A stretch of DNA of 61,569 nt, the filler included. It is 5 parts of 5 records of this genome, joined end to end, with 100 filler letters (N's around TTAATTAATTAA, not from the genome) between each part and the next. Parts side by side here need not be neighbours in the genome. Positions count along the whole stretch, not along the records: positions 39,783 to 56,042 come from SRR2962707_1547; 4 more parts are not named here. One strand, 5' to 3'. This document shows, one piece after another, positions 39,783 to 56,042 of the stretch (within the stretch, counting starts at the first letter, position 1; every line of letters starts with the position of its first letter). Under the pieces are notes generated by a model. The model saw only the letters and a program-made list of their open reading frames with translations. It made no database searches and was not told the origin of the DNA. Made by a program: the position numbers and the translations under genes.

Positions 39783-39805
39783 TCGCTGGCAAGCCAGCTT
39801 CCCAC
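39783..39805 (-). repeat. REP element at contig start
   Basis: Reverse complement GTGGGAA-GCTGGC-TT-GCCAGC-GA. Confidence 0.8.
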
Positions 39806-39964
39806 GGCCGCTCCGCCGTCTTTTCCGTGGCGAGGCGGCTTGCGGCTCCCCGCTCATTCGCTCCCGCGTTGGCTGTTCTCCCCAACGGCGCGGGTTCTGC
39901 GACCTGTTTCCGCTACTCCCGCATTCACTTTCCCGTGCCGAACTCCGTGGCTAAGTGAATGGAC

Positions 39965-40001
39965 TTGACTTATTTTGTATTTTCTATAAAAAATAGAAAA
40001 T
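39965..40001 (+). promoter_or_regulatory. Promoter region with palindromic GntR-type operator (left operon)
   Basis: TTGACT at 39965-39970; palindrome ATTTTCTAT-AAAAA-ATAGAAAAT (39979-40001), whose core matches 51829-51845 at 14 of 17 positions. Confidence 0.7.
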
Positions 40002-40054
40002 GTTCTTTGATGTAAAAAAGACGGATAAGACAAACAACAACGAAGGAGCGGGCG

Positions 40055-41788
40055 ATGCAGCCGGATCTTGCATTCTCACGTCTGTTGGCGGAAGGCGACA
40101 TGGTGTTGGACAGGCTGGACGCCTGTGTCGAGAGGCATCCGGAGAAGACCTTTATTTATTACGGCGAGGACGATGTCTCGCTGTCGTTCAAGGCGTTCAA
40201 GGAAAAGAGCGATGCCCTGGCCGCGGGGCTGGCGGGCCTGGGTGTGACCGCCGACGACCGGGTGTCGGTATTGACGCGCAATTCCCTGATGGCGGCTCTG
40301 AGCATGTTCGCCATCTGGCGCGCCGGAGCGGTCTATGCTCCGGTGAACTTCAACTATAAAGGGCGGCTGCTCAGCTATCAGTTACGGGACACCGCCCCCA
40401 AGGTCCTCATCGTTGATGTCAATCTGGCCCCGGCGGTGGACGAGGTGCTCGCTGATATCACCATTCCCCATTATGTGGTCTATCACCCCGAAGCCGGTGA
40501 TCACGATGATCAGGGCGCGAGCCTGCCGGCCGGGTTGTCGCGGGAAAGCGTGCGGGATTTTCATGCCTTGATATCGTCCCCCATGGAGCCGGTGGCCGTG
40601 TCGCGGGGTTATGACGACGTGGCCAACATCATCTATACCTCCGGCACAACCGGGCCGTCGAAAGGGGTGGTGCAAAGCTTCCGCTGGATGAATCAGTACA
40701 ACTTCCTGCCGCGCGCCTTCAACAACGCCGACGACGTGCTGTACTGCGACCTGCCGCTTTATCATGTCGGCGGCGCCTTTTCCCAGTTCGTCCGGGCGGT
40801 CTGGCACGGCAACACCGTCGGGCTGTGGGATCGATTCAGTCCCTCCCAATTCTGGCAGCGGATCGAACGCTGCCAGGCCACCGCATGTGTCCTGCTGGAT
40901 GTCATGGTGCCCTGGCTTATGAGCGCCCCCGAGCGGTCCGATGACCGCCACAACACGCTCAACAAAGTCCATATGCAACCGTTGCCCCCCTCCAACCGTG
41001 AGGTGGCGAGACGCTTTGGTTTCGATTTCGTCACCGCCGGCTTTGGCCAGACCGAAACCGGCGCCGGATTTCTGGTGGTGATCGATCAGTTTGGTGACCA
41101 GGCCGGTACGCCCGAGCCACTCTACAAAGGGCTATCCAAGCAAGACGTCAGAGCCGCCGCTGCTGAACTGGACGCGCTGATTGTCGATGGCACCAAGGAT
41201 ATCCCCAAAGGGCTAATGGGGCGCCCGTCTCCTTTGCTGGAAGCCTCCATCCTGGACGAAAACGACCAGCCTTGTGCGCCGGGCCAGGTTGGGCAGTTGT
41301 CATTTCGGCCGCGATTTCCCTCGCTGATCATCCGCGAGTACTTCAACAAACCGGAGAAAACCCTGGAGGCGTTCCGCAACCTTTGGTTTCACACCGGAGA
41401 CGCCTGCTATCGGGATGAACAGGGTTGTTATTTCTTCGTGGATCGCATGGGAGGGTACCTGCGCGTGCGGGGAGAAAACGTCTCCTCCTATGAAGTGGAG
41501 GACCTGATCAACACCCACCCGGCAATTCAAGTATCCGCGGCCATTCCGGTGCCGGCCAGGGAGGGCCATGAGGAGGATATCGGTGTGTTCATAGAAGCGG
41601 TCGAAGGCCTGGCTCTGGAAGTCGATTCGATACGGGAACATTGCCACGAGGTCATGCCGAAATACATGGTCCCCCGGCATATCCGTATCGTGCCGAGCAT
41701 GCCGTTGACGCCCACGGGCAAGATCGAGAAATACAAGTTGCGCCAGCAATTGTTGGAGGAACTGAACCGAAAAAATCACCCCCACTGA
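40055..41788 (+). CDS. AMP-forming acyl-CoA ligase (CaiC-like adenylate-forming enzyme)
   Basis: IIYTSGTTGPSKGV, LPLYHVGG, FGQTETG, WFHTGD, FVDR, RVRGENVSSYEVE, PLTPTGKIEK. RBS AAGGAG. Confidence 0.92.
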   Translation: MQPDLAFSRLLAEGDMVLDRLDACVERHPEKTFIYYGEDDVSLSFKAFKEKSDALAAGLAGLGVTADDRVSVLTRNSLMAALSMFAIWRAGAVYAPVNFNYKGRLLSYQLRDTAPKVLIVDVNLAPAVDEVLADITIPHYVVYHPEAGDHDDQGASLPAGLSRESVRDFHALISSPMEPVAVSRGYDDVANIIYTSGTTGPSKGVVQSFRWMNQYNFLPRAFNNADDVLYCDLPLYHVGGAFSQFVRAVWHGNTVGLWDRFSPSQFWQRIERCQATACVLLDVMVPWLMSAPERSDDRHNTLNKVHMQPLPPSNREVARRFGFDFVTAGFGQTETGAGFLVVIDQFGDQAGTPEPLYKGLSKQDVRAAAAELDALIVDGTKDIPKGLMGRPSPLLEASILDENDQPCAPGQVGQLSFRPRFPSLIIREYFNKPEKTLEAFRNLWFHTGDACYRDEQGCYFFVDRMGGYLRVRGENVSSYEVEDLINTHPAIQVSAAIPVPAREGHEEDIGVFIEAVEGLALEVDSIREHCHEVMPKYMVPRHIRIVPSMPLTPTGKIEKYKLRQQLLEELNRKNHPH

Positions 41789-41831
41789 TACGCACTTTCC
41801 GTATCGCGGGTACCCGATAAGGAGAACAGAA

Positions 41832-43085
41832 ATGGGTATAAAAAGACGTCAGTTGTTAGCCGGCGCGACAGGCCTCGGCGCCTTGGCCGCGCTCCATCCT
41901 TCACTGGTATGGGCCAAGGACAGCAAACCAATACGTATTGGGGCCATCTTCCCGATGTCCGGCATCGGCGCGGAAGCCGGCGCCGCCTGGCTGCAGGGCT
42001 CCCGCCTGGCGGTGGAACACTGGAACCGTAATGGCGGTGTGCTTGGGCGACCGATTGAACTGGTGGTCCGGGATGACAAGTACTCCAGCAGTGGCGCTGT
42101 TACCGCGGGCAGGGAATTGGCCACCAGCGGCGTCAATCTCATCGTCGGTGCCTGTCAGTCGCCGATGGCGTTGGGGCTGGCGCCTTTGCTGGAAGAGTTG
42201 AACGCCTTGTGCGTGGCGCCCACGCCGGCGGCCATGTCGCTGACCCACGAGAACTACAGCCGCAATCTGTTTCGCCTTTGCCCCAACGCTTACATGCTCT
42301 ACGCGGGACTGGGCCGCATGCTCGCGCAAAAACACCCGGACATTGATCACTGGGCCACCATTGTTTTTGACAGCGAATATGGCCATGACGCCATCCGCTA
42401 CTTTGAGTATGGCGTGCGCAGTGTGTCTGGAGACAGGGAGGTAACGTTTGATCGGCCTATCTACACACCGGTTCAGAAAACGGATTTCCAGGTGGAGATC
42501 AACCAGTTGATGAACTCGCCGGCGAAAGGCCTGTTCTGTGGTTTGATCGCCGCGCCCATCATCAGTTTCCTGCAGCAGGGGCGGAGTATCGGGCTGGATA
42601 GGAAGTTCGAAGTGATGGGCGAGTCGGGTACCGACCTGTTGATCGCCAAAGCGTTGAAGACCGCCATGCCCGACAACCTCTGGTCGGTCAGCTATTGGCA
42701 TCCGGAGAACTCTTTCTTTGCGAAAAACACCCTCAGCCAGCAACTATTCAAGGATTATGTCGAAGCCACTGATGATCGCTATCCGGTCGGGCTGTTAACC
42801 AGCAGTCATCGAGCCACCCAAGCTCTGCTCAGCGGCATCGAAAAGGCGGGTGACACCGACACCCAGACCGTGGTGGAGGCGATGGAAGGGCTCACCTTCG
42901 ACACCATCACCGGCCCCTATCATATCCGCAAGGAAGACCACCAAGGCTATGGCACCAGTGTTTACGCCCGGGTCGGACCCAAAGAAGACGAGCCGTACTA
43001 CGGACTGAATGACCTGGAAGTGGTGAACGACGAACAGACCATGGAGCCGCCGTCCCCGGGCGAGGCCTTCACATTGCCGGCATGA
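41832..43085 (+). CDS. ABC transporter substrate-binding protein (LivJ/HAAT type) with Tat signal
   Basis: MGIKRRQLLAG...LVWA; IRIGAIFPMSG, NRNGGVLGRPIELVVRDD. Confidence 0.9.
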   Translation: MGIKRRQLLAGATGLGALAALHPSLVWAKDSKPIRIGAIFPMSGIGAEAGAAWLQGSRLAVEHWNRNGGVLGRPIELVVRDDKYSSSGAVTAGRELATSGVNLIVGACQSPMALGLAPLLEELNALCVAPTPAAMSLTHENYSRNLFRLCPNAYMLYAGLGRMLAQKHPDIDHWATIVFDSEYGHDAIRYFEYGVRSVSGDREVTFDRPIYTPVQKTDFQVEINQLMNSPAKGLFCGLIAAPIISFLQQGRSIGLDRKFEVMGESGTDLLIAKALKTAMPDNLWSVSYWHPENSFFAKNTLSQQLFKDYVEATDDRYPVGLLTSSHRATQALLSGIEKAGDTDTQTVVEAMEGLTFDTITGPYHIRKEDHQGYGTSVYARVGPKEDEPYYGLNDLEVVNDEQTMEPPSPGEAFTLPA

Positions 43086-43165
43086 ACGGCGCCATGCCCC
43101 GGCGGTTTGGCGCGCCGTTCCGTTCCGGGGCCGTGGACTAACGCATCTCTATGCAGGAGGTCGCA

Positions 43166-45121
43166 GTGGCTACGCAGATGATTTTGGCGGTATTGAATGC
43201 CCTTTCCATGGGTATGGCGATCTTTCTGGTCGCCGCGGGTATCACTCTGATTTTTGGTCTGCTCAAGATTCTCAACATGGCACAAGGCGCCTTCTTCATG
43301 ATCGGCGCCTACCTGGCCTTCAGTATTATCGGACATCAACAGCTTTCGCTGCCGGCCTTCATCGGCGTGGCCCTGTTGGCGGGACTGGCGGTGGGGCTCT
43401 TGGGTCTGCTCACGGACCGGTTAATTTTGTCCAGACTGCGGCATGTGGATTACCACTACATGTTGATCGCCACTTTCGCGCTGATGATGGTCTGCCATGG
43501 TGTGGTCAAAGTAATCTGGGGCGTGAATTTCTTTTCGGTATTGCCGCCGAAAGGGTTGGATCAGCCCCTTCAGATAGGCACGATTTTTTTATCGCGCTAT
43601 TCCGTTTTCGTGATTGCCGCGGGCCTGGTGACCTACGCGATTCTGGAAATCGCCATTCACCGGTTGTGGGTGGGCAAACTGATGCAGTCCCTGGCCAGCA
43701 AGCCGTGGATGTGCGCGCTATTGGGAATCAATGTGTCGCTGGGGTTAACGCTCAGCGTGATGTTCGCCTTTTTCCTGGCCGGCTTTGCCGGCGGCCTGAT
43801 GCTGCCATTGCAGAGTCTCTCACCGCAGTTGGGTGATGCTTATCTGCTGTATGGTTTTTTCGCCATCATCATTGGCGGTCTGGGCAACATCCGGGGGGCC
43901 ATGCTGGGAGCCATTCTGCTGGGGCTGGTCAACAGCCTGAACACCATACTGTTACCGCAGTGGCCGGGCATCGCCATTTACGTGGTGCTGGCGGTTTTCC
44001 TGTTCTTCCGCCCGGAAGGGTTGTTTCCCAGTCTCGCCGCCCAGCCGGAGGACAGCAGCGATCAGAACGAAGCCGCCATGTCCGGTCCGGTATCCCATCG
44101 CAAGAACTGGTTTCGGGTCGGCTCGCTGCTCTTCGTGGCGGCACTCAGCTTACCTTTCTGGGCCGATGGCGGGCTGCTGTACATCGCCGGCAGCGCGGTG
44201 ATCTATGCGCTGTTCGCGTTGTCCTGGAACATTTTGTTCGGCTACACCGGGCTCGCGTCTTTCGGCCACGCGGCGTTCTTCGCCATCGGAGCTTATTTTA
44301 CCGGCGTGATGTTGCGCGATTGGCCGCAGGTGCCATTCCTGCTGATCCTACTGGGCTGTGGTGTGGCCGGAGCGCTGGTCGCCGGCTTGCTGGGTGCTCT
44401 GGCGCTGCGTCGTTTGGCCGGCATTTTTCTGGCGGTGTTGACCATCGCTTTGGCCGAGGTAACCCGTTTGCTGATCAGCTACAGCGATTTCCTTGGCCGG
44501 GAAGATGGACTGGTGGGTATTCCGCGACCAGTACTGGACGGTCTGGGCATCGACCTGAGTCGATCCTCCTCCTACTACTGGTTCCTGCTGGTGGCCGTGG
44601 CCCTGCTTATCGGCATGTTGTGGTGGATCCTGCATGGCCGATTCGGCCGTTTGCTGCTGATTACTCGTCAGGATCCCGATCGCGCCGCTTTTCTGGGCGT
44701 GAATGTGATCCGGGTGCGCACTATGTCTTTCATGCTGTCCGGGGCGGTGGCCGCCATCGCCGGCGGCCTGTACGCGCCCTGGGCGCGCATCGTGACACTG
44801 GAGCAGGTGAGCTTCCTGGCCTCCACGCAACCGGTGCTGAACGCCATGCTCGGTGGTGTCCATTCGTTTTGGGGGCCGTTGATCGGTGCTGGCATTTTTG
44901 CCGCCCTGGAGTATGGGACCCGCACTTTTGTCGGCCTTTCCGAAATGATGATGGGCGCGCTGCTGCTGTTGATCATTCTTGCCGCGCCTAACGGCGTGAT
45001 CGGACTGTGGCGTGCCTATACCACGGCCAAACGAGCCGGCACCACGGACAGGAAAGAGGGCAGTGTGACGCCGGAGGAAAACTCACCGAGGAGACTGGCG
45101 GATGGACATTCTCAAAGTTGA
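43166..45121 (+). CDS. Fused LivH-LivM type ABC permease
   Basis: LivH half (AAGITLIFGLLKILNMAQGAF, IIGGLGNIRGA), polar linker, LivM half (SWNILFGYTGLASFGHAAFFAIGAY, LGGVHSFWGP). AGGAGG precedes GTG 43166. Confidence 0.88.
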   Translation: MATQMILAVLNALSMGMAIFLVAAGITLIFGLLKILNMAQGAFFMIGAYLAFSIIGHQQLSLPAFIGVALLAGLAVGLLGLLTDRLILSRLRHVDYHYMLIATFALMMVCHGVVKVIWGVNFFSVLPPKGLDQPLQIGTIFLSRYSVFVIAAGLVTYAILEIAIHRLWVGKLMQSLASKPWMCALLGINVSLGLTLSVMFAFFLAGFAGGLMLPLQSLSPQLGDAYLLYGFFAIIIGGLGNIRGAMLGAILLGLVNSLNTILLPQWPGIAIYVVLAVFLFFRPEGLFPSLAAQPEDSSDQNEAAMSGPVSHRKNWFRVGSLLFVAALSLPFWADGGLLYIAGSAVIYALFALSWNILFGYTGLASFGHAAFFAIGAYFTGVMLRDWPQVPFLLILLGCGVAGALVAGLLGALALRRLAGIFLAVLTIALAEVTRLLISYSDFLGREDGLVGIPRPVLDGLGIDLSRSSSYYWFLLVAVALLIGMLWWILHGRFGRLLLITRQDPDRAAFLGVNVIRVRTMSFMLSGAVAAIAGGLYAPWARIVTLEQVSFLASTQPVLNAMLGGVHSFWGPLIGAGIFAALEYGTRTFVGLSEMMMGALLLLIILAAPNGVIGLWRAYTTAKRAGTTDRKEGSVTPEENSPRRLADGHSQS

Positions 45122-45869
45122 TCAGGTTTGTAAAAGCTATGGGGCTTTGGAAGTACTCAAGCAGGTCTCCCTGGCGGTTTCTCAAGGCAGCATCTTCGCC
45201 ATCATCGGTCCCAATGGTGCCGGTAAGACCACGTTGTTCAAGGTCATGACCGGCGAGAGTCCCGCTAATGGCGGTTCGGTCTGGTTTCATGGCGAGGATG
45301 TGACGTCCGCGCCGGCCCACCGCCGCGCCCGCGCGGGTATTGGACGAACCTTCCAGGTGGCCAGGGTGTTCAACGACTTTTCCGTACGTGAGAACGTAAT
45401 CGCGGCGGTGGAAGCCCGGCGCCGTAATCAGCGTCAATCCCTGGGTCGTTGGTGGGCGATCAAACCGGATTCGGCGGTGGTGTCGGAAGCGGAGGCGTTG
45501 ATCGATGAAATTGGTCTGGACGGATCGGAGGATGTGGCCGCGCGTTTTCTATCCCATGGGGACCGAAAACGTCTCGAGTTCGTCATCGCCCTGGCTTTGC
45601 AGCCCAGGCTGTTGATGCTGGATGAACCCACCGCCGGCATGTCTCCCGCCGACCGGCTGGGAATCGCCGAGCTGATTGTACGGATTCGCGATCGCCTGGG
45701 CGTCACCGTGGTGATGACCGAGCACGACATGGACATTGTTTTCAAGTTGGCCGACCGCGTGCTGGTGCTCAATTACGGTGAAGTGGTGGTAACCGGCACG
45801 GTCGAGGAAATCCGGGGCAATCCCGCGGTTCAGGAAGTCTATCTCGGCAAGGAGGTGCTGCATGCTTGA
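45102..45869 (+). CDS. ABC ATPase (LivG-like)
   Basis: GPNGAGKTT, GRTFQ, LSHGDRKRLE, LDEPTAG, EHDMD. Confidence 0.92.
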   Translation: MDILKVDQVCKSYGALEVLKQVSLAVSQGSIFAIIGPNGAGKTTLFKVMTGESPANGGSVWFHGEDVTSAPAHRRARAGIGRTFQVARVFNDFSVRENVIAAVEARRRNQRQSLGRWWAIKPDSAVVSEAEALIDEIGLDGSEDVAARFLSHGDRKRLEFVIALALQPRLLMLDEPTAGMSPADRLGIAELIVRIRDRLGVTVVMTEHDMDIVFKLADRVLVLNYGEVVVTGTVEEIRGNPAVQEVYLGKEVLHA

Positions 45870-46563
45870 AGTGCGAGATCTGAACGCTTTCTACGGCGAT
45901 GCGCACATTCTTCACAATGTTGCTCTGCAAGTGGAAGCCGGGCAGCGCGTGGCGTTGTTGGGGCGTAACGGCGCGGGTAAGTCCACTTTCCTCAAGAGTG
46001 TCATGAACGCCGGGCCCGGCGTGAACGGTTCAGTCCGGTTTGAAGGAAAAAACCTGGGCAATCTGCCGTCGTATCAGCGCGCCCGGCTGGGTATTGCTCT
46101 GGTACCGGAGGATCGTCAGATCATTCCCCATCTCAGTGTGCTGGAAAACATCGCCATGGCCGGTCACGCCCGGTCCGGCCGCCCGGCGCTGACACCAGGC
46201 CAGATCGCCGAGCACTTTTCCATGCTGGAGCCCTTGGTGAAACGTTACGGAGGTCAGCTTAGCGGCGGCCAGCAGCAGCTGTTGGCCATCGCCCGTGCCT
46301 TTGCCGGGGCGCCGAAACTGTTGTTTCTGGACGAGCCCACGGAGGGCCTGGCGCCAATCATCGTGCAAGGCATGGTGGATGAGATCCTGGACATCTGCGC
46401 CAACAATGGCACGGCCTTGTTGTTGTGTGAGCAGAACATCTGGTTTTCCAGAGCCTGCACCGATTATGTCTACATCATTGATACCGGCAAACTGGTGTTT
46501 CACGGTGACTGGCGGGCTTTCGACGCCAATCCCGAGATTACCCAACGGTATCTTTCGGTATGA
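45862..46563 (+). CDS. ABC ATPase (LivF-like)
   Basis: GRNGAGKST, LSGGQQQ, LDEPTEGLAP, EQN. Confidence 0.92.
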   Translation: MLEVRDLNAFYGDAHILHNVALQVEAGQRVALLGRNGAGKSTFLKSVMNAGPGVNGSVRFEGKNLGNLPSYQRARLGIALVPEDRQIIPHLSVLENIAMAGHARSGRPALTPGQIAEHFSMLEPLVKRYGGQLSGGQQQLLAIARAFAGAPKLLFLDEPTEGLAPIIVQGMVDEILDICANNGTALLLCEQNIWFSRACTDYVYIIDTGKLVFHGDWRAFDANPEITQRYLSV

Positions 46564-46594: not shown

Positions 46595-47818
46595 ATGAAA
46601 GGCGCTTTGAACGGTATACGAGTGCTTGATCTGTCCCGGTTCGTGGCCGGTCCCTATTGCGCGATGATGCTAGCGGACATGGGCGCGGAGGTGATCAAGA
46701 TCGAACGGCCGGGCCCTGGCGAGGTGGCGCGGGGCATTGAGCCGGGAGTGGATGGTCAGAGTTATTACTCCTTTGTCGTCAATCGCAACAAACTCGGCCT
46801 CACTCTGGACTACCGGCAACCCGCCGGCCGTGATCTGTTGCGTGAGCTGGTGGCCGAAGCGGATGTATTGGTGGAGAACTTCCGCCCCGGTGTGATGGAA
46901 GCCATGGGGTGTGGCTGGGATGTGCTCAGTGCCATCAACCCGCGCCTGGTGATGGCGCGCATCTCCGGCTTTGGTCAAAGTGGACCGCTGGCCAACAAAC
47001 AGTGTTTCGATGCCGTGGCTCAGGCAATGAGCGGGCTGATGGACATGACCGGCGATCCCGCCGGTCCACCCATGCTCACTGGAACCACGGTGATTGATTA
47101 CACCACCGGCATGTACGCCGCCATGGGCGTCCTCGCCGCCATTAATGCCCGCCATCAAACCGGGCAGGGGCAGGTGGTGGACGTCGCCTTGCTCGACAGC
47201 GCCGTATCCCTGCTGCTCAGTGCCATACCCGAGCGCGCCCACGGTGATACAGCGATTACTCGTCGAGGGAATCGGGATCGCTTCTGCGCGCCTTCCAATA
47301 CCTTCCAGACCCGGGACCGGCGCTGGGTGCTGATCAACTGCGCCGATGATCCCATGTTCGAGCGCCTTGCCGCCGCCATGGGGCGGCCGGAACTGATCTC
47401 GGATCCCTGCTTTGAAAGCCGCCCCCGCCGCGTGGAGAACCGCGACCGGATCGAGGCGATGACCGGAACATGGGTGGCCGGTCTGAGCGCCCGGGAAGTG
47501 GAGGCGCAATTGGAGCAGGCCAATGTGCCCTGTGCCGTGGTGGCCACCATCGATGATGTTCTGGACAACGAGCAGCTGCGGCACCGGGGACAGATCACCG
47601 AAGTCGCTCATCAGAGCGGCAAGAAAGTCATCACCCAGGGAGTGACGATGCAACTGTCGGACACGCCGTTGAGCATTCGCTCGGCATTGCCCTACGTGGG
47701 TGAACATTCCGGCCAGGTGCTGTCCTCCTGGCTGGGCTATTCGGAGCAGCGCATTGGCGCGCTGGCCGAACAAGGCATCATTTCCGTGACTCGTTCGGAG
47801 AAACATTATGCGTCTTAG
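46595..47818 (+). CDS. Class III CoA-transferase (CaiB/BaiF family)
   Basis: GIRVLDLSRFVAGP, LADMGAEVIKIE, NRNK, ADVLVENFRPG, catalytic Asp in VIDYTTG. RBS GGAGGAG before ATG 46595. Confidence 0.92.
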   Translation: MKGALNGIRVLDLSRFVAGPYCAMMLADMGAEVIKIERPGPGEVARGIEPGVDGQSYYSFVVNRNKLGLTLDYRQPAGRDLLRELVAEADVLVENFRPGVMEAMGCGWDVLSAINPRLVMARISGFGQSGPLANKQCFDAVAQAMSGLMDMTGDPAGPPMLTGTTVIDYTTGMYAAMGVLAAINARHQTGQGQVVDVALLDSAVSLLLSAIPERAHGDTAITRRGNRDRFCAPSNTFQTRDRRWVLINCADDPMFERLAAAMGRPELISDPCFESRPRRVENRDRIEAMTGTWVAGLSAREVEAQLEQANVPCAVVATIDDVLDNEQLRHRGQITEVAHQSGKKVITQGVTMQLSDTPLSIRSALPYVGEHSGQVLSSWLGYSEQRIGALAEQGIISVTRSEKHYAS

Positions 47819-48575
47819 ATTACGACAACTGTGCCTGGTGGCGGACAAACTCGAGCCCGTGGTGGAGGATCTGAAAGCGGTATTCGGCCTTGATGTCTGT
47901 TTCAGGGATCCTGGTGTCGGCAAATTCGGGCTGCACAATGCCCTGCTGGCAGTGGGGCCGACTTTCATCGAGATCGTGGCGCCGGTTCAGGAAAACACCA
48001 CCGCCGGTCGCTACCTGCAAAAGCGCGGCGGCGATGGCGGCTACATGGTGATCCATGACACCGATGATCTGGAGGGGTGGGCGGCGCATCTGTCCGAGTT
48101 AAATATCCGCATCGCCGCGGCCCTGGAACACGGCGATTACCGGGGCTTGCAACTGCACCCCGGCGACACCGGCGGCGCCTTGTTGGAGATCAACACCACC
48201 AAGGGCGGTGATCAACTCGATGACGCTTACGGTCCCGCCGGTCCGGATTGGCAGTCCCACGTCCGGCAGGAACGGGTTAAGGGCATTGCCGCCGCCGAAT
48301 TACAGAGCGCGGACCCGGAACGACTGGCCCGCCGGTGGTCGGAAGTGCTGCGGCGGCCCTGTGAGGCGGTGCCGGCTGGGTTTGAGGTGACACTGGATCA
48401 CGGCCGTCTCCGGTTCGTGCAAGCCCGCGACGGTCGGGGTGAAGGTCTGGGTGGTCTGGACATTCAGGTGCAGGACGCGAAGGCAGTGCAGGCACAGGCC
48501 CGCGCCCGTGATTTGCCGGTCAGCGACGACACCGTGGTGATTGGCGGCATGCGCTTTTATCTCGTTTCCCCCTGA
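47808..48575 (+). CDS. VOC/glyoxalase-like protein, paralog of 10473-11267, overlapping the CoA-transferase stop
   Basis: RQLCLV...FIEIVAP...GRYLQKRGGDGGYMVIH...LHPGDTGGALLEI...DGRGEGL. Confidence 0.82.
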   Translation: MRLRLRQLCLVADKLEPVVEDLKAVFGLDVCFRDPGVGKFGLHNALLAVGPTFIEIVAPVQENTTAGRYLQKRGGDGGYMVIHDTDDLEGWAAHLSELNIRIAAALEHGDYRGLQLHPGDTGGALLEINTTKGGDQLDDAYGPAGPDWQSHVRQERVKGIAAAELQSADPERLARRWSEVLRRPCEAVPAGFEVTLDHGRLRFVQARDGRGEGLGGLDIQVQDAKAVQAQARARDLPVSDDTVVIGGMRFYLVSP

Positions 48576-48608: not shown

Positions 48609-49772
48609 ATGGATCTGAATTACAGTGAAGAACAAAACATGCTGCGGGAAAGCGTGGCCCGCTTCGTTCGTGACCGTTACGACTTCGCCCAGCGGCAGCA
48701 ATGTCTGAGCGCGGGGGAGGGTGCCGCGTTCTGGTCACGGTTCGCTGAGCTGGGCTGGCTGGCGATACCATTCAGCGAGGATCAGGGCGGCATTGGCGGT
48801 GGCGCCGTGGAGGTGGGCATCGTCATGGAAGGCCTGGGACGGGCCCTGGCCCTGGAGCCCTATCTGGCGCATATGGTGGCCACCCAATTGCTCGCCAGGG
48901 TGGCGAAGGAGTCGGTGAACGCACGCCATTTACCGGCGGCGCTGGCCGGCGAAAGCCGTCTTGCGCTGGCCTTTTCCGAAGCGGGAGGCCGCTACCATCC
49001 CGCCTTTTGTACCACCAGCGCTTCCCCTCTGGGGGACCGCTATGTGATTCAAGGGGCCAAAAGCGTGGTCCCGGGCGGACAGCATGCGGACCTTTACCTG
49101 GTGGTGGCGCGCACCGCCGGCCAAGCCAGGGATGAACACGGCCTGACGTTCTTTTTGCTGGAGCGCGATCATCCCGCTCTGCGGGTGCGTGAGTATCAGA
49201 CTAACGATGGCACCGGTGCCGCGGACCTGACTTTCGAACAGCTTGAGGTGAGCGGCGACGCTCGCATTGGTGAGCTCCATGGTGCCTATGCCGAACTGGA
49301 ATGGGCGTTGGACCTGGGGGTGGCCTATCAGGGCTGGGAGGCGGTGGGTGCCATGTCAGCGCTGTCCGACGCCACCTTGGAATACCTCAACACCCGCAAG
49401 CAATTCGGTAAACCCCTGGGTGCCAATCAAGCGTTGACGCATCGCATGGTGGATCTGTTCATCGCCGTGGAGGAAAGCCGCTCCAGCGTGCTGCGCGCCG
49501 CCCTGGCGATGGACGCGGAATCGCCGACCCGGCGGCGGCGCGAGTTGTCGCTGAGCAAAATCGCCGTTGATCGTTGTGCCCGCTTCGTCGGCCAGACCGC
49601 GGTTCAGTTGCACGGTGCCATGGGGGTCACCAACGAATTGCCGGTGGGGCATTACTTCAAACGTCTCACCGCCATCACCGCCACCTTCGGTGACAGCGAA
49701 TGGCACGCCCGGCGCATCCACCGGTTGGATAGTGCCTCCTCCCGTGAAGCAGGAGTGGAACATGGACATTAA
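48609..49772 (+). CDS. Acyl-CoA dehydrogenase, PimD-like (non-catalytic) subunit
   Basis: MDLNYSEEQNML, ALAFSEAGGRY, RKQFGKPLG, QLHGAMGVTNE, FGDSEWH. No catalytic ER or YGGxNE motif. Confidence 0.85.
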   Translation: MDLNYSEEQNMLRESVARFVRDRYDFAQRQQCLSAGEGAAFWSRFAELGWLAIPFSEDQGGIGGGAVEVGIVMEGLGRALALEPYLAHMVATQLLARVAKESVNARHLPAALAGESRLALAFSEAGGRYHPAFCTTSASPLGDRYVIQGAKSVVPGGQHADLYLVVARTAGQARDEHGLTFFLLERDHPALRVREYQTNDGTGAADLTFEQLEVSGDARIGELHGAYAELEWALDLGVAYQGWEAVGAMSALSDATLEYLNTRKQFGKPLGANQALTHRMVDLFIAVEESRSSVLRAALAMDAESPTRRRRELSLSKIAVDRCARFVGQTAVQLHGAMGVTNELPVGHYFKRLTAITATFGDSEWHARRIHRLDSASSREAGVEHGH

Positions 49773-50961
49773 TCTTTCTCCGGAACAGCAGCGATTCGCT
49801 GAGCAGGTGCGGGAATTCATCAGTCGCAACCTGCCTCGGGATATTGCTGAAAAAGTCCGCCGCGACCAACATCTGGACCGGGACGATCATATGCGTTGGC
49901 AGCAGATCCTCGGCAAACAGGGTTGGCATGCCTTTACCTGGCCGGAACAATATGGCGGCCCGGGCTGGTCGGTGATACAGCGGTATTTGTTTGAAGTGAT
50001 CAGCGCGGAAATGGACTGTCCGATTATCCAGCCCTTCGGGCCGCGCATGGCCGGTCCGGTGATCTATACCTTCGGTACGGAACAACAAAAAGAGCGGTTC
50101 CTGCCCGGCATTCGCGACTCCAGTGTCTGGTGGTGCCAGGGCTATTCCGAACCCCAGGCCGGTTCCGACCTGGCTTCATTGTCCACCTGGGCGGAGGACA
50201 AGGGCGATCATTACCTGGTGAACGGCCAAAAAATCTGGACCTCCTATGCCCACCACGCGGACTGGATGTTCTGCCTGGTGCGCACCTCGAAAGGCGAACG
50301 GCCACAACAGGGCATCTCCTTTGTGTTGATCGACATGCGCACCCCGGGCGTGGATGTGCAGCCCATTCTAATGCTTGAAGGCACTCATTCGTTCAACACC
50401 GTGTTTCTAGAAAACGTCAAAGTGCCCAAGGAAAATCTCATTGGAGAACAGGACAAGGGCTGGACCTACGCCAAATTCCTGCTCGAACACGAGCGGGTGG
50501 ACAATGCCGCCATCGGTGTGACCAAAGCGGCGTTGCGCCGGCTCAAACGTATCGCCAGCGAAGAAATTGCCGACGACGGCGGCCCGCTGATCCAGGATCC
50601 GTTGTTTCACCGGAAACTGGTGGAGGTGGAAGCGCAATTGCAGTCTCTCGAAGTCACCGCGTTGAGGGTTCTGTCCCAGGTGGCCAGTGGCGAGGCGCCG
50701 GGACCGGTGGCGTCGCTGTTGAAGATACGCGGTACGGAGATCGCTCAGCGCATCAGTGAGCTGGCTGCCGAGGCGGTGGGCGTTTTCTGTCTGCCTTACC
50801 AGCCGGACTATCTGCATGATGCCAGCGCAGAGCAGCCGGTGGGCCCGAAGCATGCCGCCACCGCCGCCAATAACTATCTGTGGCGCCGCTGCATGTCCAT
50901 CTATGGCGGCACCAATGAGATTCAGAGAGAGATCATCGCCAAGCGGGTGCTGGAATTATAG
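49762..50961 (+). CDS. Acyl-CoA dehydrogenase, PimC-like catalytic subunit
   Basis: MDINLSPEQQRF, WWCQGYSEPQAGSDLASL, AKFLLEHER, SIYGGTNEIQREIIAK. RBS AGGAG before ATG 49762. Confidence 0.9.
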   Translation: MDINLSPEQQRFAEQVREFISRNLPRDIAEKVRRDQHLDRDDHMRWQQILGKQGWHAFTWPEQYGGPGWSVIQRYLFEVISAEMDCPIIQPFGPRMAGPVIYTFGTEQQKERFLPGIRDSSVWWCQGYSEPQAGSDLASLSTWAEDKGDHYLVNGQKIWTSYAHHADWMFCLVRTSKGERPQQGISFVLIDMRTPGVDVQPILMLEGTHSFNTVFLENVKVPKENLIGEQDKGWTYAKFLLEHERVDNAAIGVTKAALRRLKRIASEEIADDGGPLIQDPLFHRKLVEVEAQLQSLEVTALRVLSQVASGEAPGPVASLLKIRGTEIAQRISELAAEAVGVFCLPYQPDYLHDASAEQPVGPKHAATAANNYLWRRCMSIYGGTNEIQREIIAKRVLEL

Positions 50962-50992
50962 GCAACGTGAGGGCCGGGTGACCTGGTGTGGC

Positions 50993-51715
50993 TCAGTCGC
51001 TTCCCTGTTCCTTGGAGAGACGTTCTTCCAGATAGCTCAGAATGAGGTTGGAACTGGCGAGAATATCTTCCTGGATACTGCTCCTGGCCTGTTCGCCGTC
51101 GCGTTTACGCAGGGCCTGGAGCACAGCGAGGTGAGGGTGAGTTTCGCGGGGTTCGCAGGGCGGGTGGGCGGTGAAGGCATTGACCGTCGGACCACATTGC
51201 AACCACAGATTGCGGACGATGCGGGAGAGAAACGGCATATCGGCCAAGTCACACAGACTTTGGTGGAAATGCACGTTTTCGCTCATCATCGCCAGATAAT
51301 CCTTTGCTTCCTTGGCGTTGCACAACTGGTTATGGATTTGTTCCAGCTGATCGATATCCGTGCCTCTGGCCAATTGGGCGGCACGCCAGGCCGCTTCGCC
51401 TTCCAGCATGACGCGCAGGTCGCGGATCTCTTTGTAGCGTTCTGGCGGCAGGATCGCCACCCGCACGGAACGTCTGTCTACTTGTGAGAGCACTCCGGAA
51501 GACACCAGCCGGGCCAGTGCTTCCCGCACCGGTGTCTGGCTGATGCCCAATTCCTCGGAGATTTCCTTCAGCTTGATCTTCTCGCCAGGTTGGAAGCGGC
51601 CGCTCATCAGCGCCTGCCGGAGATAGCGGTGCGCCTGAGCGCTGAGGCTGTCCTTGGTCAGACCCACCGGGGCCTCGGGCGGGCGAGGCGTCTGTGAAGA
51701 CATGAAGGCACTCAC
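50993..51715 (-). CDS. GntR family regulator (FCD domain)
   Basis: GRFQPGEKI...ELGISQTPVREALARL, EIRDLRVMLE, NVHFH, HLAVLQAL. Exact start uncertain (GTG 51715 or ATG 51703). Confidence 0.92.
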   Translation of the reverse strand: MSAFMSSQTPRPPEAPVGLTKDSLSAQAHRYLRQALMSGRFQPGEKIKLKEISEELGISQTPVREALARLVSSGVLSQVDRRSVRVAILPPERYKEIRDLRVMLEGEAAWRAAQLARGTDIDQLEQIHNQLCNAKEAKDYLAMMSENVHFHQSLCDLADMPFLSRIVRNLWLQCGPTVNAFTAHPPCEPRETHPHLAVLQALRKRDGEQARSSIQEDILASSNLILSYLEERLSKEQGSD

Positions 51716-51774: not shown

Positions 51775-51798
51775 GGCGGAAACCGGAAAGAGCAGGGC

Positions 51799-51845
51799 TT
51801 GACGGTCAGAAAGCGTTAGTTTTATATATTGTATAAAATATACAA
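51799..51845 (+). promoter_or_regulatory. Promoter and palindromic GntR operator for the right operon
   Basis: TTGACG (51799-51804), AT-rich -10 region, palindrome TTGTATA-AAA-TATACAA (51829-51845). Confidence 0.72.
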
Positions 51846-51934
51846 AATTATCCAGCAATAGGCTTCACCCAACGCGGATACCAACAACAAACCCGGCTCC
51901 ATAACCGAGCCGCTGGCAACGAGCGAGTACAACA

Positions 51935-52726
51935 ATGAGTGATCCCCAACTTCTTGAACGGCTCGAGCAGGGCATCCTGTGGCTGACCCTGAATCGCCCG
52001 GAGAGCCGTAATGCCCTGACACCGGAGATGATCAGCCAGTTGCGCGAGATCCTGGAAAAGGCAGCGGTGGATCCAGCGGTGCGCGTGGTGGTGCTGGGCG
52101 GCGCGGGCAAGGGCTTTTGCGCCGGCGGTGACGTCAAGGCCATGGCGGAAAGGGGGGACCCCGGGCCGATGGAACAGCGCGTGACCGAACTGCGCCAGTC
52201 CATGGAAAGCGCGCGGCTGCTCCACGAAATGCCCAAACCCACCATCGCCATGGCCCGCGGTGCGGTGGCTGGAGCCGGCCTGTCGCTGGCGTTGGCGTGT
52301 GACTTCCTGATCGTTTCCGACCGTCTCAAACTGACGTCCGCCTTTGTTAACGTCGGGCTTTCCGGTGACTTTGGCAGCACCTACTTCCTGACCCACCGGC
52401 TCGGGCATCGCGCTCGGGAATTGGCGCTGCTGTCTCCGCTGCTGGACGCCGCCGAAGCGGAACGCCTGGGTCTGGTGAACCGGGTCGTGGCCGATGCCGA
52501 GCTGGAAAACGTCACCGCCGATCTGGCCGCCCGCTTGGCTGCCGGACCGGGACTCACCCAGGGCCATATCAAAGCCAACCTCAACGCCGCCGAGCAGGGC
52601 GCCACTTTGGCACAGCTGCTGGACCAGGAAGCCTGGCGGCACATTCGCTGCAGCCTGACCGAGGACCATCAAGAAGCGGCCAGCGCCTTCGTGGAAAAAC
52701 GCACGCCCCAATTCCGCAATCGCTGA
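51935..52726 (+). CDS. Crotonase family protein (PaaG-like signature)
   Basis: LNRPESRNAL, FCAGGDV, AGAGLSLALACD, FVNVGLSGDFG. Confidence 0.9.
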   Translation: MSDPQLLERLEQGILWLTLNRPESRNALTPEMISQLREILEKAAVDPAVRVVVLGGAGKGFCAGGDVKAMAERGDPGPMEQRVTELRQSMESARLLHEMPKPTIAMARGAVAGAGLSLALACDFLIVSDRLKLTSAFVNVGLSGDFGSTYFLTHRLGHRARELALLSPLLDAAEAERLGLVNRVVADAELENVTADLAARLAAGPGLTQGHIKANLNAAEQGATLAQLLDQEAWRHIRCSLTEDHQEAASAFVEKRTPQFRNR

Positions 52727-52782
52727 AAACACCGCATTGCAGCCCGCCCAAGGCGGGCACCCGCACTGAACAGGAGAGCACC

Positions 52783-53601
52783 ATGTCTTATCAGGACATC
52801 GAATACAGCGTGAGCGGTCATATCGCCACCATTACTCTTAACCGTCCGGAGCGCTTGAACGCCTGGACTCATCTGATGGAAAACGAGATGCGTTCCGCCC
52901 TCGCGGTGGCCGAGGCGGACGATCAGGTGCGCGCGGTGGTCATCACTGGCGCCGGGCGGGGCTTTTGCGCGGGCGCTGACATGAGCCTGCTCAACAGCGC
53001 CGCCAGTGGTGAACGTGATAGCAACGATAAGGAAGACGCACAGAGCACAAGCGCTGATGATCCGGAAGGCAACTTCAGCCGTAAGTTCAGCTATCTGCTG
53101 CGGGTGTCGAAGCCGATCATCGCCGCCATCAATGGACCGGTGGCGGGCATCGGTCTGTGCATGACCCTGTTTTGTGATTTCCGCTTCATGGCCGACAACG
53201 CCAAGCTCACCACCGCTTTTTCCCGTCGTGGTCTGATCGCCGAGCACGGCGCCTCCTGGATGCTGCCCCGGCTGGTGGGCACCATGAACGCCCTGGATCT
53301 GCTTTATTCCGGGCGCCTGGTGCAAGCGGAAGAGGCCCAGAGCATGGGGCTGGTCAAGACCTTCCCGGCGGAGGGCTTTCTGGCGACGGTGGAGAACATC
53401 GTGGAGGAAATGGTGACGCTGTCCTCGCCGCGCTCCATCGGAGTGATGAAACGCCAGGTTTTCGACGGCCTGTTCCAGTCCTTGTCGCAAGCCTGGGACG
53501 TGGCGGATCGGGAGATGGTGGCGTCCTTCGACAGTAACGATTTCAAGGAAGGCGTTGCTCATTTCATGGAAAAACGCGCGCCGAACTTCACCGGCTCCTG
53601 A
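52783..53601 (+). CDS. Crotonase family protein
   Basis: LNRPERLNAW, FCAGADM, AGIGLCMTLFCD, FSRRGLIAEHG, EGVAHFMEKRAPNF. Confidence 0.9.
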   Translation: MSYQDIEYSVSGHIATITLNRPERLNAWTHLMENEMRSALAVAEADDQVRAVVITGAGRGFCAGADMSLLNSAASGERDSNDKEDAQSTSADDPEGNFSRKFSYLLRVSKPIIAAINGPVAGIGLCMTLFCDFRFMADNAKLTTAFSRRGLIAEHGASWMLPRLVGTMNALDLLYSGRLVQAEEAQSMGLVKTFPAEGFLATVENIVEEMVTLSSPRSIGVMKRQVFDGLFQSLSQAWDVADREMVASFDSNDFKEGVAHFMEKRAPNFTGS

Positions 53602-53633
53602 ATCGCGCCCTTCCACCATGAGGACCCTGCGTT

Positions 53634-54812
53634 ATGGATACTCTCGACTCCACGGAGATGCACGCTTTTCGCCGGGAAGTGCGTGATTTCGTCACCGTCA
53701 CGCTGCCCGAACCGCTGAAACAACGCAGCCGGCAAGGATTTCATCCCAGCAAGGAAGACATGCGGGAGTGGACCGCCACTCTCCATGGCAAGGGATGGTC
53801 GGCGCCGCACTGGCCGACCTGCTACGGCGGCACCGATTGGTCGCCGCTGAAACGGATGGTCTTCGATATCGAACTGGCGGAAGCCTGGGCACCGGCTCCC
53901 AGCCCTTTCGGCCTGTACCTGATTGGCCCGGTGATCTACACCTTTGGCACCGATCAGCAAAAAGAGCGCTATTTGCCGCGCATCCTGGACGGCTCCGAAT
54001 TCTGGTGTCAGGGCTATTCCGAACCCAACGCCGGCTCCGACCTGGCTTCGCTGCGCACCGCCGCGAAAAGAGAAGGGGATTACTATCGGGTCAACGGTCA
54101 GAAGATCTGGACCAGCCAAGCACAATTCGCCGACTGGATCTTCTGCCTGGTGCGTACCGACAACAGCGGCAAGAAGCAGAACGGCATCAGCATGCTGCTG
54201 ATCGACATGCGCAGCCCCGGCGTGACGGTGAAACCGATCATCACCCAGGATATGGATCACTACGTCAATGAAGTGTTCTTCGAGGATGTGCGGGTGCCGG
54301 CGGAGAACCTCATCGGCGAGGAAAACGCCGGCTGGCGTTACGCTAAATTCCTGCTGGAAAACGAGCGCACCAGCAGTGCCTACCTGCCGCAGGCGAAGCA
54401 GGACATGAAGCGCCTGCGCGAAATCCTCGACCGCATGCGTGAGCAACAGACCGATGGAATCGACGACGAGGCGCTGGACGCGGAATGCGCGGCCCTGGAA
54501 ATCGAAGTCGCCGCCCACGAGTTGGCCATCTATCGCATCCTCACCGACAACGCCAGCAGCCAGGCCGATACCGCCGCTTCCATGGTCAAGATCCAGGGGG
54601 CGCGGCTGCAACAACGTATCAGCGCCTTGTGGGTGGAGGTCCTGGGCATGCACGGACTCCCTCTTTTCCAGCCGCATCGGGAGCACGACTTCGGTGACCC
54701 GGCGGCGATGGGGGCCATGTCCCAGTTCCTGATTCGCCGGGCGGTGTCCATCTATGGCGGCACCAATGAAATCCAGCACGGCATCATCGCCAAACGGGGA
54801 CTGCATCTATGA
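53634..54812 (+). CDS. Acyl-CoA dehydrogenase, PimC-like catalytic subunit (second pair)
   Basis: FWCQGYSEPNAGSDLASL, AKFLLENER, SIYGGTNEIQHGIIAK. Confidence 0.9.
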   Translation: MDTLDSTEMHAFRREVRDFVTVTLPEPLKQRSRQGFHPSKEDMREWTATLHGKGWSAPHWPTCYGGTDWSPLKRMVFDIELAEAWAPAPSPFGLYLIGPVIYTFGTDQQKERYLPRILDGSEFWCQGYSEPNAGSDLASLRTAAKREGDYYRVNGQKIWTSQAQFADWIFCLVRTDNSGKKQNGISMLLIDMRSPGVTVKPIITQDMDHYVNEVFFEDVRVPAENLIGEENAGWRYAKFLLENERTSSAYLPQAKQDMKRLREILDRMREQQTDGIDDEALDAECAALEIEVAAHELAIYRILTDNASSQADTAASMVKIQGARLQQRISALWVEVLGMHGLPLFQPHREHDFGDPAAMGAMSQFLIRRAVSIYGGTNEIQHGIIAKRGLHL

Positions 54813-55972
54813 GGGACGCAACGTTACAACGGCGGCCGTTGGCCCTGGGGCTCAGCGAGGATGAACGCCAGCTCCAGGACAGTATCGAGCGTTTCATCGA
54901 CCACGAATACGACCTGACGCGCCGTCGCGCGGCGCTCGCCGAAGGCGGTGACGATCCCGCCTTATGGCGGCAGATCGCCGAACTGGGGTGGCTGGGTGCC
55001 TGCCTGCCGGAAACCGACGGCGGCTACGCTCAGTCCCCCAAGGAGGCCCTGATCCTGCTGGAGCAATTTGGCCGAGGTCTGGTGCTGGCGCCCGTGCTGG
55101 ATGCCATGCTGGTGCCATCGGCGATTATACGGGCGGCCGGGCAGGGCGAACGCGAGGCCGCGCTGTTGATGGCGATGATGGGCGGGGAGCGCCGCCTGGC
55201 TCTGGCCTGGGCGGAACCGGGGCGACGCTATGATTTGCGGCCGGTGACCACTCAGGCACGGCACGATGGCTACCAATGGCGGCTGCAGGGTACCAAGGCC
55301 ACGGTACTGGGGGCTCCACAGGCGGACACGCTGCTGGTATCCGCCGCCGCCGATCAGGGGCCGGTGCTGATGCGGGTGCCGGCGGACGCGCCCGGACTGG
55401 CTATGACATCCTGCCCCACAATCGGCGGGCAACCGGCGGCGGACTTGTTTTTCGCCGATGTGCGCGTCGCCGATGACGCCCTGGTGGCCAGCGAGGAAAG
55501 CGCCGCGGCGGCGTTGCAAGCAGGGTGGGATTGGGGCGCGGCGGGAGCCTGTGCGGAAGCGTTGGGCGCCATGCGCGCGGCTTTGACGTTGACCCTGGAA
55601 TACGTCGACACCCGCGAGCAGTTCAGCCAGCGATTGTCGCGATTCCAGGTGATCCAGCATCGTCTGGCCGCCATGGCCCTGGAACTGGAATACAGCCAGG
55701 CGCTGTTACCTTTGCTGGCGGCGCACCTGGATCGGCCTGGCGAGCGCTCGTCAACGGTCATCGCCGGTGTCCGCTCGCGTATCAGCGCGGCGGCACGCAG
55801 GGTGACCGCCGACGCGGTCCAACTGCACGGCGGCATCGGTGTCACCGACGAGGCGGCGGTGAGTCATTATTTCCGCCGCGTGGTGGCATTGGACCAGGCC
55901 TGGGGAGGGCACCGTTTCCATCTGCAGCGCTACCGTCAGCAGCGTCACGGCCACGATTTGATTCACGCCTAG
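54809..55972 (+). CDS. Acyl-CoA dehydrogenase, PimD-like non-catalytic subunit (second pair)
   Basis: ALAWAEPGRRY, REQFSQRLSRFQVIQHR, QLHGGIGVTDE, WGGHRFH. ATGA overlap with its partner. Confidence 0.85.
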   Translation: MRDATLQRRPLALGLSEDERQLQDSIERFIDHEYDLTRRRAALAEGGDDPALWRQIAELGWLGACLPETDGGYAQSPKEALILLEQFGRGLVLAPVLDAMLVPSAIIRAAGQGEREAALLMAMMGGERRLALAWAEPGRRYDLRPVTTQARHDGYQWRLQGTKATVLGAPQADTLLVSAAADQGPVLMRVPADAPGLAMTSCPTIGGQPAADLFFADVRVADDALVASEESAAAALQAGWDWGAAGACAEALGAMRAALTLTLEYVDTREQFSQRLSRFQVIQHRLAAMALELEYSQALLPLLAAHLDRPGERSSTVIAGVRSRISAAARRVTADAVQLHGGIGVTDEAAVSHYFRRVVALDQAWGGHRFHLQRYRQQRHGHDLIHA

Positions 55973-56023
55973 CGGTGGTGCCACAACCGCCCGGTGTGCA
56001 TCAATCAGGGCCACGAAGCCGCC

Positions 56024-56042
56024 GTGGGAGCGGCCTTGGCCG
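56024..56042 (+). repeat. REP element truncated by the contig end
   Basis: GTGGGA-GCGGCC-TT-GGCCG. Confidence 0.8.

Follow-up and report, generated by a model that had tools for sequence, protein, structure and literature searches.

An uncharacterised 14-gene acyl-CoA catabolic module on an accessory island bracketed by REP elements

The DNA described here is a stretch of 61,569 nucleotides (the window, also referred to as the 61.5-kb window) in which five contigs are joined by spacers of the form N...TTAATTAATTAA...N at positions 14220-14319, 23500-23599, 39683-39782 and 56043-56142; gene neighbourhoods are not readable across these spacers, since the contigs are separate. Positions 39783-56042 are one entire contig (SRR2962707_1547) of 16,260 bases, both ends of which abut N spacers. 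This block is a discrete accessory island of 16.4 kb with exactly 14 genes, bracketed by repetitive extragenic palindromic (REP) elements, and it encodes an acyl-CoA catabolic module. The reading preferred here, to which about an even chance is given, is that the island acts as a pre-processing module: it would prepare an unusual acid, probably a dicarboxylic one, whose degradation general β-oxidation then finishes, and would not be a complete thiolase-free pathway. The initial annotation of this DNA had proposed such a new thiolase-free pathway, which is not established.

The recognition of the block as a discrete accessory island derives from the conservation of its gene order in two related genomes and from the presence of an empty site in two others. 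On a 152-kb contig of A. balearicus (L009), the full set of 14 genes is found in unchanged order with 93-98% amino acid identity, and the 14-gene order is likewise kept, at 62-86% amino acid identity, in a third species of the genus (G039). In both genomes the block is flanked by a TerB-DnaJ gene on one side and by a gene for a luciferase-like monooxygenase of the YhbW/MsnO8 type on the other. In two congeners that lack the block (G001 and G020), the flanking genes are separated by 600-750 bp, which represents the empty site; in G001, the nearest genome, a syntenic copy of the block was not found, and the empty site aligns with L009 up to position 1856 and resumes at 18321, with REP-like sequence in between. 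The luciferase-like monooxygenase gene was considered as a fifteenth gene and rejected, as it adjoins TerB-DnaJ in the island-free genomes. An orthologue of the second crotonase of the island occurs in 3 of 61 sampled genomes of the family, all three within the genus (3 of 18). An equivalent contig of 16,258 bases is obtained from a metagenome run.

REP elements are short, GC-rich palindromes that recur in numerous intergenic regions of a genome. The sequences at the ends of the contig belong to this class, as they recur at many places in G001 and in the A. balearicus flanks: contig positions 1-105 align to L009:1952-2067, and positions 1-61 match many places in G001. L009 has REPs on both sides of the block, and a REP pair at L009:18200-18300 occupies the same place as the right-end REP. 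Together with the matching blocks and the empty sites, this bears out the earlier view that the contig is one module bounded by REPs. The assembly breaks at the island ends because REPs are located there, and since N spacers lie on either side, the lack of neighbour genes around 39783-56042 is due to where the assembly was cut and does not mark a biological boundary. A short contig in runs X3, X12 and X14 joins 56013-56042 to 39783-39812 via 27 nucleotides (nt). A circular form was rejected, given that the 27-nt joint equals a REP doublet that is also found on the left flank of the L009 island, and a repeat collapsed by the assembler is the simplest explanation. An IS200-like Y1 transposase gene, possibly REP-associated, is located at L009 19687-20382, 1.5 kb past the island and behind the luciferase-like monooxygenase gene. 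Strains are distinguished by a 12-nt insertion (ACAACAACCGAC) at window position 40033 (L009 2225-2240), which repeats the ACAACAAC leader before the ligase start and is also present in runs X12 and X14.

Gene families were assigned by Pfam and NCBIfam profiles, which confirmed the 14 genes listed previously as two operons with a divergent gntR gene (Table 1). Inside each operon the genes are spaced by at most 65 nt or overlap. The left operon encodes an AMP-forming acyl-CoA ligase, a four-gene Liv-type ABC importer, a class III CoA-transferase, a vicinal oxygen chelate (VOC) protein and a pair of acyl-CoA dehydrogenase (ACAD) subunits, and the right one encodes two crotonases and a second ACAD pair. 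With the exception of the generically named crotonase model PRK06210, no NCBIfam equivalog cut-off was reached by the island genes. The best model for the ligase was PRK06155 (332 vs 722 bits) and no PDB sequence matched this protein at E 1e-40; the best solved relative of the solute-binding protein is 3i45 (E 4.6e-33), in a PDB sequence search whose matches are distant or generic. The transferase belongs to the class III (CaiB/BaiF) CoA-transferase superfamily over the full length of PF02515 and reached no specific NCBIfam equivalog cut-off. Its nearest solved relatives are SUGCT (9br6, E 6e-68) and then YfdE and Frc, with α-methylacyl-CoA racemase farther away (6e-36).

The best solved relative of the first large ACAD subunit is ChsE4 (4x28_A, E 2.6e-46), and the HERV motif of the island protein aligns to chain residue E247. 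The large subunit is also near Tcur3483 (7e-43), and the small subunits match Tcur3481 and ChsE5 more weakly. Chain residue 247 of ChsE4 and the C-terminal Y-E-G-T column are taken here to be the catalytic base positions. In the alignment, the E247 column holds Glu in each large subunit and Gly in each small one, and neither small subunit has a Glu at the Y-E-G-T column. Both pairs consist, in this way, of adjacent genes for a catalytic and a non-catalytic subunit, and each pair is predicted to form an α2β2 heteromer; because of this residue pattern, two dehydrogenases and not four would be encoded. For each of the four genes, pimC or pimD ranks first among the NCBIfam families, with scores that amount to 37-65% of the equivalog cut-offs, and orthology to PimC (TIGR03204; 408 and 401 vs 623.85 bits) or PimD (TIGR03203; 311 and 245 vs 652.7 bits) was not supported.

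Neither crotonase has the two residues that define the canonical enoyl-CoA hydratases (Glu in G-G-G-x-E and Glu in P-E), in agreement with the earlier statement that no such hydratase is encoded. When aligned to three FadB N-domains, the two catalytic Glu columns contain Ser/Phe in crotonase 1 (ech1) and Cys/Phe in crotonase 2 (ech2). An acidic residue follows eight positions further on in both proteins (D145 in ech1, E154 in ech2), presumably where the catalytic Asp of PaaG sits. The PaaG equivalog TIGR02280 was reached by neither of them (177.6 and 167.7 vs 345.15 bits). This residue pattern suggests that the crotonases most likely catalyse an isomerisation, opening or rearrangement of the acyl chain in place of a simple hydration.

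The VOC protein shares 96% identity with a protein named from Alloalcanivorax xenomutans, and 3025 relatives of this family were scored among 8000 candidates. About 130 residues of its N-domain align to methylmalonyl-CoA epimerase (MCE; E 2.3e-7), and the L-H-P-x-D...G-x-L-x-E motif is part of this alignment; the MCE model TIGR03081 was not reached (43.1 vs 114.95 bits). MCE presumably uses a His/Gln/His/Glu metal site and a catalytic Glu, and the island protein has Q7, E55, Y79/M80 and E127 at the metal columns and N44 where the base would be. The AlphaFold2 (AF2) model has two domains (pLDDT 93.6) and its nearest structures in Foldseek are the two-domain VOC proteins HMS/HPPD and 3p8a, which are generic matches, and a search of the ESM Atlas returned unnamed VOC clusters and nothing else. 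A. balearicus and A. xenomutans also encode a second VOC paralogue with 60% identity (L014 and L016, 10001-10765), in an unrelated setting next to genes for a MocR-type regulator, CMD proteins, a glucose/sorbosone dehydrogenase, a glutathione S-transferase, a short-chain dehydrogenase/reductase (SDR) and a thioesterase.

The protein encoded between the operons has the winged helix-turn-helix and FCD domains of the GntR/FadR subfamily and probably represses both operons. The initial annotation described a matching operator at both of them, which is correct at the level of the motif but not of the complete site. The pattern TTGTAT-N(4-13)-ATA[CG]AA occurs in the window solely at 39975-39998 and 51829-51845 (0.02 expected from shuffles), in both cases just behind a TTGAC(T/G) hexamer; the spacing of the half-sites differs between the two promoters (12 vs 5), so the operator candidates match as a motif only. 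The core of the left candidate, TATTTT(A/C)TATAAAAAATA, is kept in L009 and G039, and the palindrome at 51829-51845 is kept in L009 and degenerate in G039. A motif resembling the candidate precedes both units in Marinobacter, and Burkholderiales relatives have TGTTATAACA-like palindromes in place of the AT-rich core. A promoter scan gave 6 sites vs 4.7 expected and is no evidence on its own. The pattern has three more matches in the A. balearicus genome: one in the gap between an unknown open reading frame and a metallo-β-lactamase-fold gene, one inside a toxin-antitoxin locus and a third that is non-palindromic. The same operator in front of a thiolase or 3-hydroxyacyl-CoA dehydrogenase (HAD) gene elsewhere in the genome would have pointed to ordinary β-oxidation; no such gene follows the pattern in A. 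balearicus, a weak negative given that the pattern is self-made. In run X14, an RNA library, contigs cover both operons and none covers gntR (50623-51706), and DNA runs cover the region evenly; this pattern is suggestive of transcribed structural genes, but such contigs are no evidence of transcription, and the gaps prove nothing.

Table 1. Genes and sequence elements of the island, with positions counted along the window.
Feature	Position	Strand	Basis or remark
REP-containing left end of contig/island	39783..39887	.	Opening 23 nt also found at 4 sites within 36 kb of A. balearicus flanks
Promoter-like site TTGACT-18 nt-AAAAAT, overlapped by AT-rich palindromic operator candidate TTGTAT...ATAGAA	39965..39998	+	
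AMP-forming acyl-CoA ligase	40055..41788	+	PF00501 191 bits and PF13193
Liv-type periplasmic solute-binding protein	41832..43085	+	Peripla_BP_6, 204.6 bits
Fused LivH/LivM-type ABC permease, 656 residues	43151..45121	+	BPD_transp_2 in two stretches; UrtB-like and UrtC-like halves
ABC ATPase, LivG/UrtD-like	45102..45869	+	Pfam, NCBIfam
ABC ATPase, LivF/UrtE-like	45862..46563	+	Pfam, NCBIfam
Class III CoA-transferase	46595..47818	+	CoA_transf_3 (PF02515) 417 bits, profile 1-366 of 366; start is ATG behind GGAGGAG
Two-domain VOC protein (Glyoxalase_3), 255 residues, MCE-like N-domain	47808..48575	+	Pfam; AF2 model
ACAD small (β-like) subunit 1	48609..49772	+	pimD_small 311 vs 653 bits; matches Tcur3481, ChsE5
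ACAD large (α-like) subunit 1	49762..50961	+	pimC_large 408 vs 624 bits; 11-nt overlap with small-subunit gene
GntR/FCD transcription regulator, between operons	50993..51715	-	PF00392 59 bits and PF07729 78 bits
Operator candidate, perfect palindrome TTGTATA-AAA-TATACAA, between gntR and ech1	51829..51845	.	Just behind TTGACG hexamer
Crotonase 1, PaaG-like (ech1)	51935..52726	+	ECH_1 181 bits; oxepin_alt 188 vs 300, PaaG 178 vs 345 bits
Crotonase 2, EchA12-like (ech2)	52783..53601	+	PRK06210 344 vs 341 bits (generic name); best solved relative 3qre EchA12_1
ACAD large (α-like) subunit 2	53634..54812	+	pimC_large 401 vs 624 bits; NERT motif at catalytic column
ACAD small (β-like) subunit 2	54809..55972	+	pimD_small 245 vs 653 bits; 4-nt overlap with preceding gene
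REP, right end of contig/island	56008..56042	.	Matches REPs in L009, L094, L095 and G001

In the mechanism proposed for the pre-processing module, a carboxylic, most likely dicarboxylic, acid would be imported by the Liv-type ABC system, and the presence of one importer is consistent with the uptake of a single acid as suggested before. The AMP-forming ligase would generate the first CoA thioester and the SUGCT/Frc-like class III transferase may hand the CoA on, as in the cai operon; these enzymes would provide the two activation routes that had been postulated. The chain could then be desaturated at two points by two α2β2 dehydrogenases of the ChsE4-5/PimCD type, and the earlier proposal of two desaturations fits the two separate αβ enzymes with the catalytic Glu confined to the large subunits. 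The single-acid crotonases might relocate the double bonds, or else cause opening or rearrangement of the chain, and the MCE-like VOC protein may act on a CoA ester beside the first dehydrogenase. The products would finally enter general β-oxidation (FadB, thiolases, pim-like cluster). The substrate is probably a branched, unsaturated or cyclic dicarboxylic acid, as suggested by the relatives of the transferase, by the Pim-like ACADs and by the replacement of the ABC system with carboxylate transporters (TRAP, TTT and SSF) in other taxa.

As initially reported for the contig, thiolase and FadB are absent: local queries detected no thiolase or FadB-type gene in the whole window, and none is located within 19 kb on either side of the island in A. 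balearicus. The A. balearicus genome encodes 13 thiolases over the Pfam cut-off and 3 full FadB-type genes, all on other contigs. One of these contigs carries a conventional cluster (L116-L117, G002:C18:8359-23139), part of the core genome, with an SDR, a ligase, a Liv-type ABC system, FadB and a PimC/PimD-like pair that scores 530 vs 624 and 409 vs 653 bits and is closer to Pim than the island pairs. Since A. balearicus has thiolases, FadB genes and a pim-like cluster elsewhere, hydration, oxidation and thiolysis could be supplied in trans. Genes matching this conventional cluster are also found on contig C16 of G001.

Related clusters were surveyed in species-representative genomes at the best 80 of 534 VOC-encoding loci, which were scored with the window proteins (an orthologue having ≥45% identity and lying ≤10 kb from the VOC gene) and with hidden Markov models (HMMs) for thiolase, FadB and SDR. 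Orthologues near the VOC gene were found for crotonase 1 at 39 of the 80 loci (directly beside it at 11), for the large ACAD subunit at 25, crotonase 2 at 23, GntR at 21, the transferase at 19, the small ACAD subunit at 5 and the ligase at 4. Module-type clusters, defined as VOC plus at least three other families, numbered 24 and belong, according to the record titles, to A. balearicus, three Marinobacter, Chelatococcus, one metagenome-assembled genome (MAG) and 18 loci of Burkholderiales type. One and the same SDR, a generic FabG-like protein, is encoded inside the operon, between or beside the crotonases, in 19 of these 24 clusters. The SDRs from Burkholderiales are 72-84% identical to one another and placed between crotonase 2 and crotonase 1, those of the MAG (L065) and Chelatococcus share 60% identity, and the best match in A. 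balearicus (55%) to the SDR of the related clusters is the SDR of the conventional cluster, as it is in G001. The five SDR-free clusters are those of A. balearicus and the three Marinobacter, in which a second ACAD pair stands right behind the crotonases, and one contig of 4.8 kb that is truncated at crotonase 1. The initial annotation had reasoned that its proposal would fall if homologous clusters usually carried a thiolase or HAD gene, and the survey gives half of this picture, with the SDR in most clusters and, in 12 of 24, a FadB-type gene at the outer limit of the 10-kb flank. APH-family phosphotransferase genes adjoin the related clusters of Marinobacter (L010 2332-3408) and of the MAG (L065 8275-9393); pairs of a kinase and an ACAD occur in 4-hydroxy-acid catabolism, and these genes could hint at oxo or hydroxy acids here.

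Several of these observations weigh against the pre-processing module. No thiolase was detected by HMM in the 24 related clusters, and some linkage might be expected if thiolysis ends the pathway. All 80 loci are anchored on the VOC gene, and the counts are not those of an unbiased sample. The ech-SDR-ech order of the Burkholderiales clusters resembles that of hydratase-dehydrogenase-ring-hydrolase sets and, by analogy, would make those clusters self-contained; dch-had-oah and badK-badH-badI are sets of this kind. Lastly, the designation of the VOC protein as an epimerase is unsupported because the metal and catalytic residues of MCE are lost (H, E, Q, H to Q7, N44, E55, Y79/M80). Of the previous proposal that the chain is resolved by isomerisation or epimerisation instead of thiolysis, the isomerisation part is favoured by the PaaG-like, non-hydratase crotonases, and neither the epimerase nor the avoidance of HAD and thiolysis is sustained.

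The same lack of linked thiolases is an argument for a complete thiolase-independent pathway, in which one crotonase would hydrate or isomerise and the other, possibly with the VOC protein, would break a C-C bond through hydrolysis or a retro-aldol reaction. Precedents for such chemistry are the ring opening of alicyclic acyl-CoAs (BadI, Oah, EchA20) and the cleavage of side chains at tertiary carbons (HCHL, ChsH-Ltp2). This route, rather unlikely in our judgement, would also agree with the occurrence of thiolase at only 2 of the 80 VOC loci, with the lack in A. balearicus of thiolase or FadB genes within 19 kb of the island or behind the operator-like pattern, with the non-hydratase nature of both crotonases and with the ring-hydrolysing oxepin_alt family as the best one for crotonase 1. 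The ech1-SDR-ech2 order found in 17 of 18 Burkholderiales-type loci points in the same direction, as do the α2β2 ACADs, since enzymes of the ChsE4-5 type act on bulky substrates. However, the island is devoid of the SDR needed by the ring-opening sets, the AliB, BadI-type and Oah-type equivalogs were not reached (BadI itself was not searched for), a FadB-type gene is near half of the related clusters, and a cleavage activity is not readable from sequence.

A related and broader idea is that the VOC protein and the PaaG-like crotonase represent a two-enzyme system for CoA esters that is widespread in Proteobacteria and has so far gone undescribed, and which together with the α2β2 dehydrogenases would form a β-oxidation-like route cleaving the chain without thiolase; it is viewed as doubtful and put forward tentatively. 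In many alphaproteobacterial MAGs, VOC and crotonase 1 occur as a pair amid unrelated surroundings, twice behind a thiolase, and such settings fit an auxiliary role for both, in favour of the pre-processing module. In several soil alphaproteobacterial MAGs (L031, L038, L042, L062) a small cupin gene precedes the crotonase-1/VOC pair, giving a three-gene unit (L031, ~8.7-10.8 kb). The plasmid contexts examined (Tistrella, Rhodococcus, Marinobacter) correspond to no named pathway.

The island could also be an ordinary pimFABCDE-type paralogue, with the ACAD pairs as chain-length variants of PimCD, crotonases that hydrate, and HAD and thiolase shared with other clusters. The family assignment of all four ACAD genes, the closeness of the transferase to dicarboxylate transferases and the layout of Liv-type ABC system and ligase, which is also that of the conventional A. 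balearicus cluster, would agree with it. So would the multiplied β-oxidation isoenzymes, with redundancy, described in a report on Alcanivorax growing on weathered polyethylene (bioRxiv 10.64898/2025.12.10.693370). This explanation is nevertheless improbable, as the ACAD scores stay far from the PimC/PimD cut-offs and below those of the conventional pair, both crotonases miss the hydratase glutamates, plain β-oxidation has no place for a conserved VOC protein, and the island is kept intact alongside the conventional cluster. That two unrelated operons came to lie side by side between repeats by chance, with no single pathway, is very improbable: the units are apart or rearranged elsewhere (in Marinobacter the right unit comes first, in Chelatococcus the crotonases are absent within 10 kb, and Tistrella plasmid pTM1 has VOC-ACAD-ACAD only), but three species of the genus keep the 14-gene order, with amino acid identity as low as 62%, VOC, crotonases 1 and 2, large ACAD and GntR co-occur in at least 21 of the 24 module-type loci, and a related AT-rich palindrome precedes both operons.

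Bacteria of the Alcanivorax type are main marine consumers of oil and of oxidised plastic fragments and, to our knowledge, much of their β-oxidation gene redundancy is unexplained. The island offers a clean experimental handle on this diversity in marine hydrocarbon degraders and on the VOC family, as a cleanly bounded, portable unit of 14 genes with its own importer and regulator is convenient for substrate discovery and for transfer to other hosts. Assigning the reaction of the VOC protein would annotate its large family at once and, if the thiolase-free route were true, a new way of shortening acyl-CoA chains would be at hand.

A published description of this gene set was not found in the literature or its supplements (bioRxiv supplements, which might list the genes, were outside reach), in line with the initial annotation, which did not recognise it as a described pathway. 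Among known systems, pimFABCDE of Rhodopseudomonas palustris shares with the island the two-gene large/small ACAD, the AMP-forming ligase and a neighbouring Liv-type ABC importer. The island lacks PimF-type (FadB) and PimB-type (thiolase) genes, which were found neither in the window nor within 19 kb in A. balearicus, its ACADs score 245-408 bits vs cut-offs of 624-653, and it additionally has the class III transferase, the VOC protein and two non-hydratase crotonases. Ralstonia requires PimCD-like pairs for C8-C12 diacids according to fitness data, and the available part of that study mentions no VOC protein or class III transferase in such a setting (PMC12543098). The α2β2 steroid acyl-CoA dehydrogenases ChsE4-ChsE5 and Tcur3481-Tcur3483 include the best solved relatives of the large ACAD subunit, with the catalytic Glu column kept in the large subunits only; the relatedness is low, and the island has no steroid-cluster context and neither a MaoC hydratase nor an Ltp2-type aldolase. 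The alicyclic bad/ali systems are not matched, as models of cyclohexanecarboxyl-CoA dehydrogenase gave 67-98 vs 575-650 bits and no SDR is encoded in the island, BadI not having been included in the search. Crotonase 1 has PaaG, the oxepin-CoA hydrolase families and 4fzw_C among its top matches, although it remains below the cut-off and paa genes are not nearby, and the VOC protein is twice as long as methylmalonyl-CoA epimerase, with two domains and different residues at the metal/base columns. The caiABCD operon shares four enzyme families with the island (ligase, class III transferase, ACAD and crotonase) in one operon without HAD or thiolase, and in its CoA logic the ligase primes and the class III transferase recycles CoA. 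The island genes are not orthologues of the cai genes (CaiB 153 vs 413, CaiC 210 vs 651, CaiA 52-71 vs 540 bits), and the island differs by its two predicted heteromeric ACADs, second crotonase, VOC protein and other transporter. In comparison with these systems, the island is an uncharacterised acyl-CoA catabolic module in which known enzyme families are brought together in an unusual combination.

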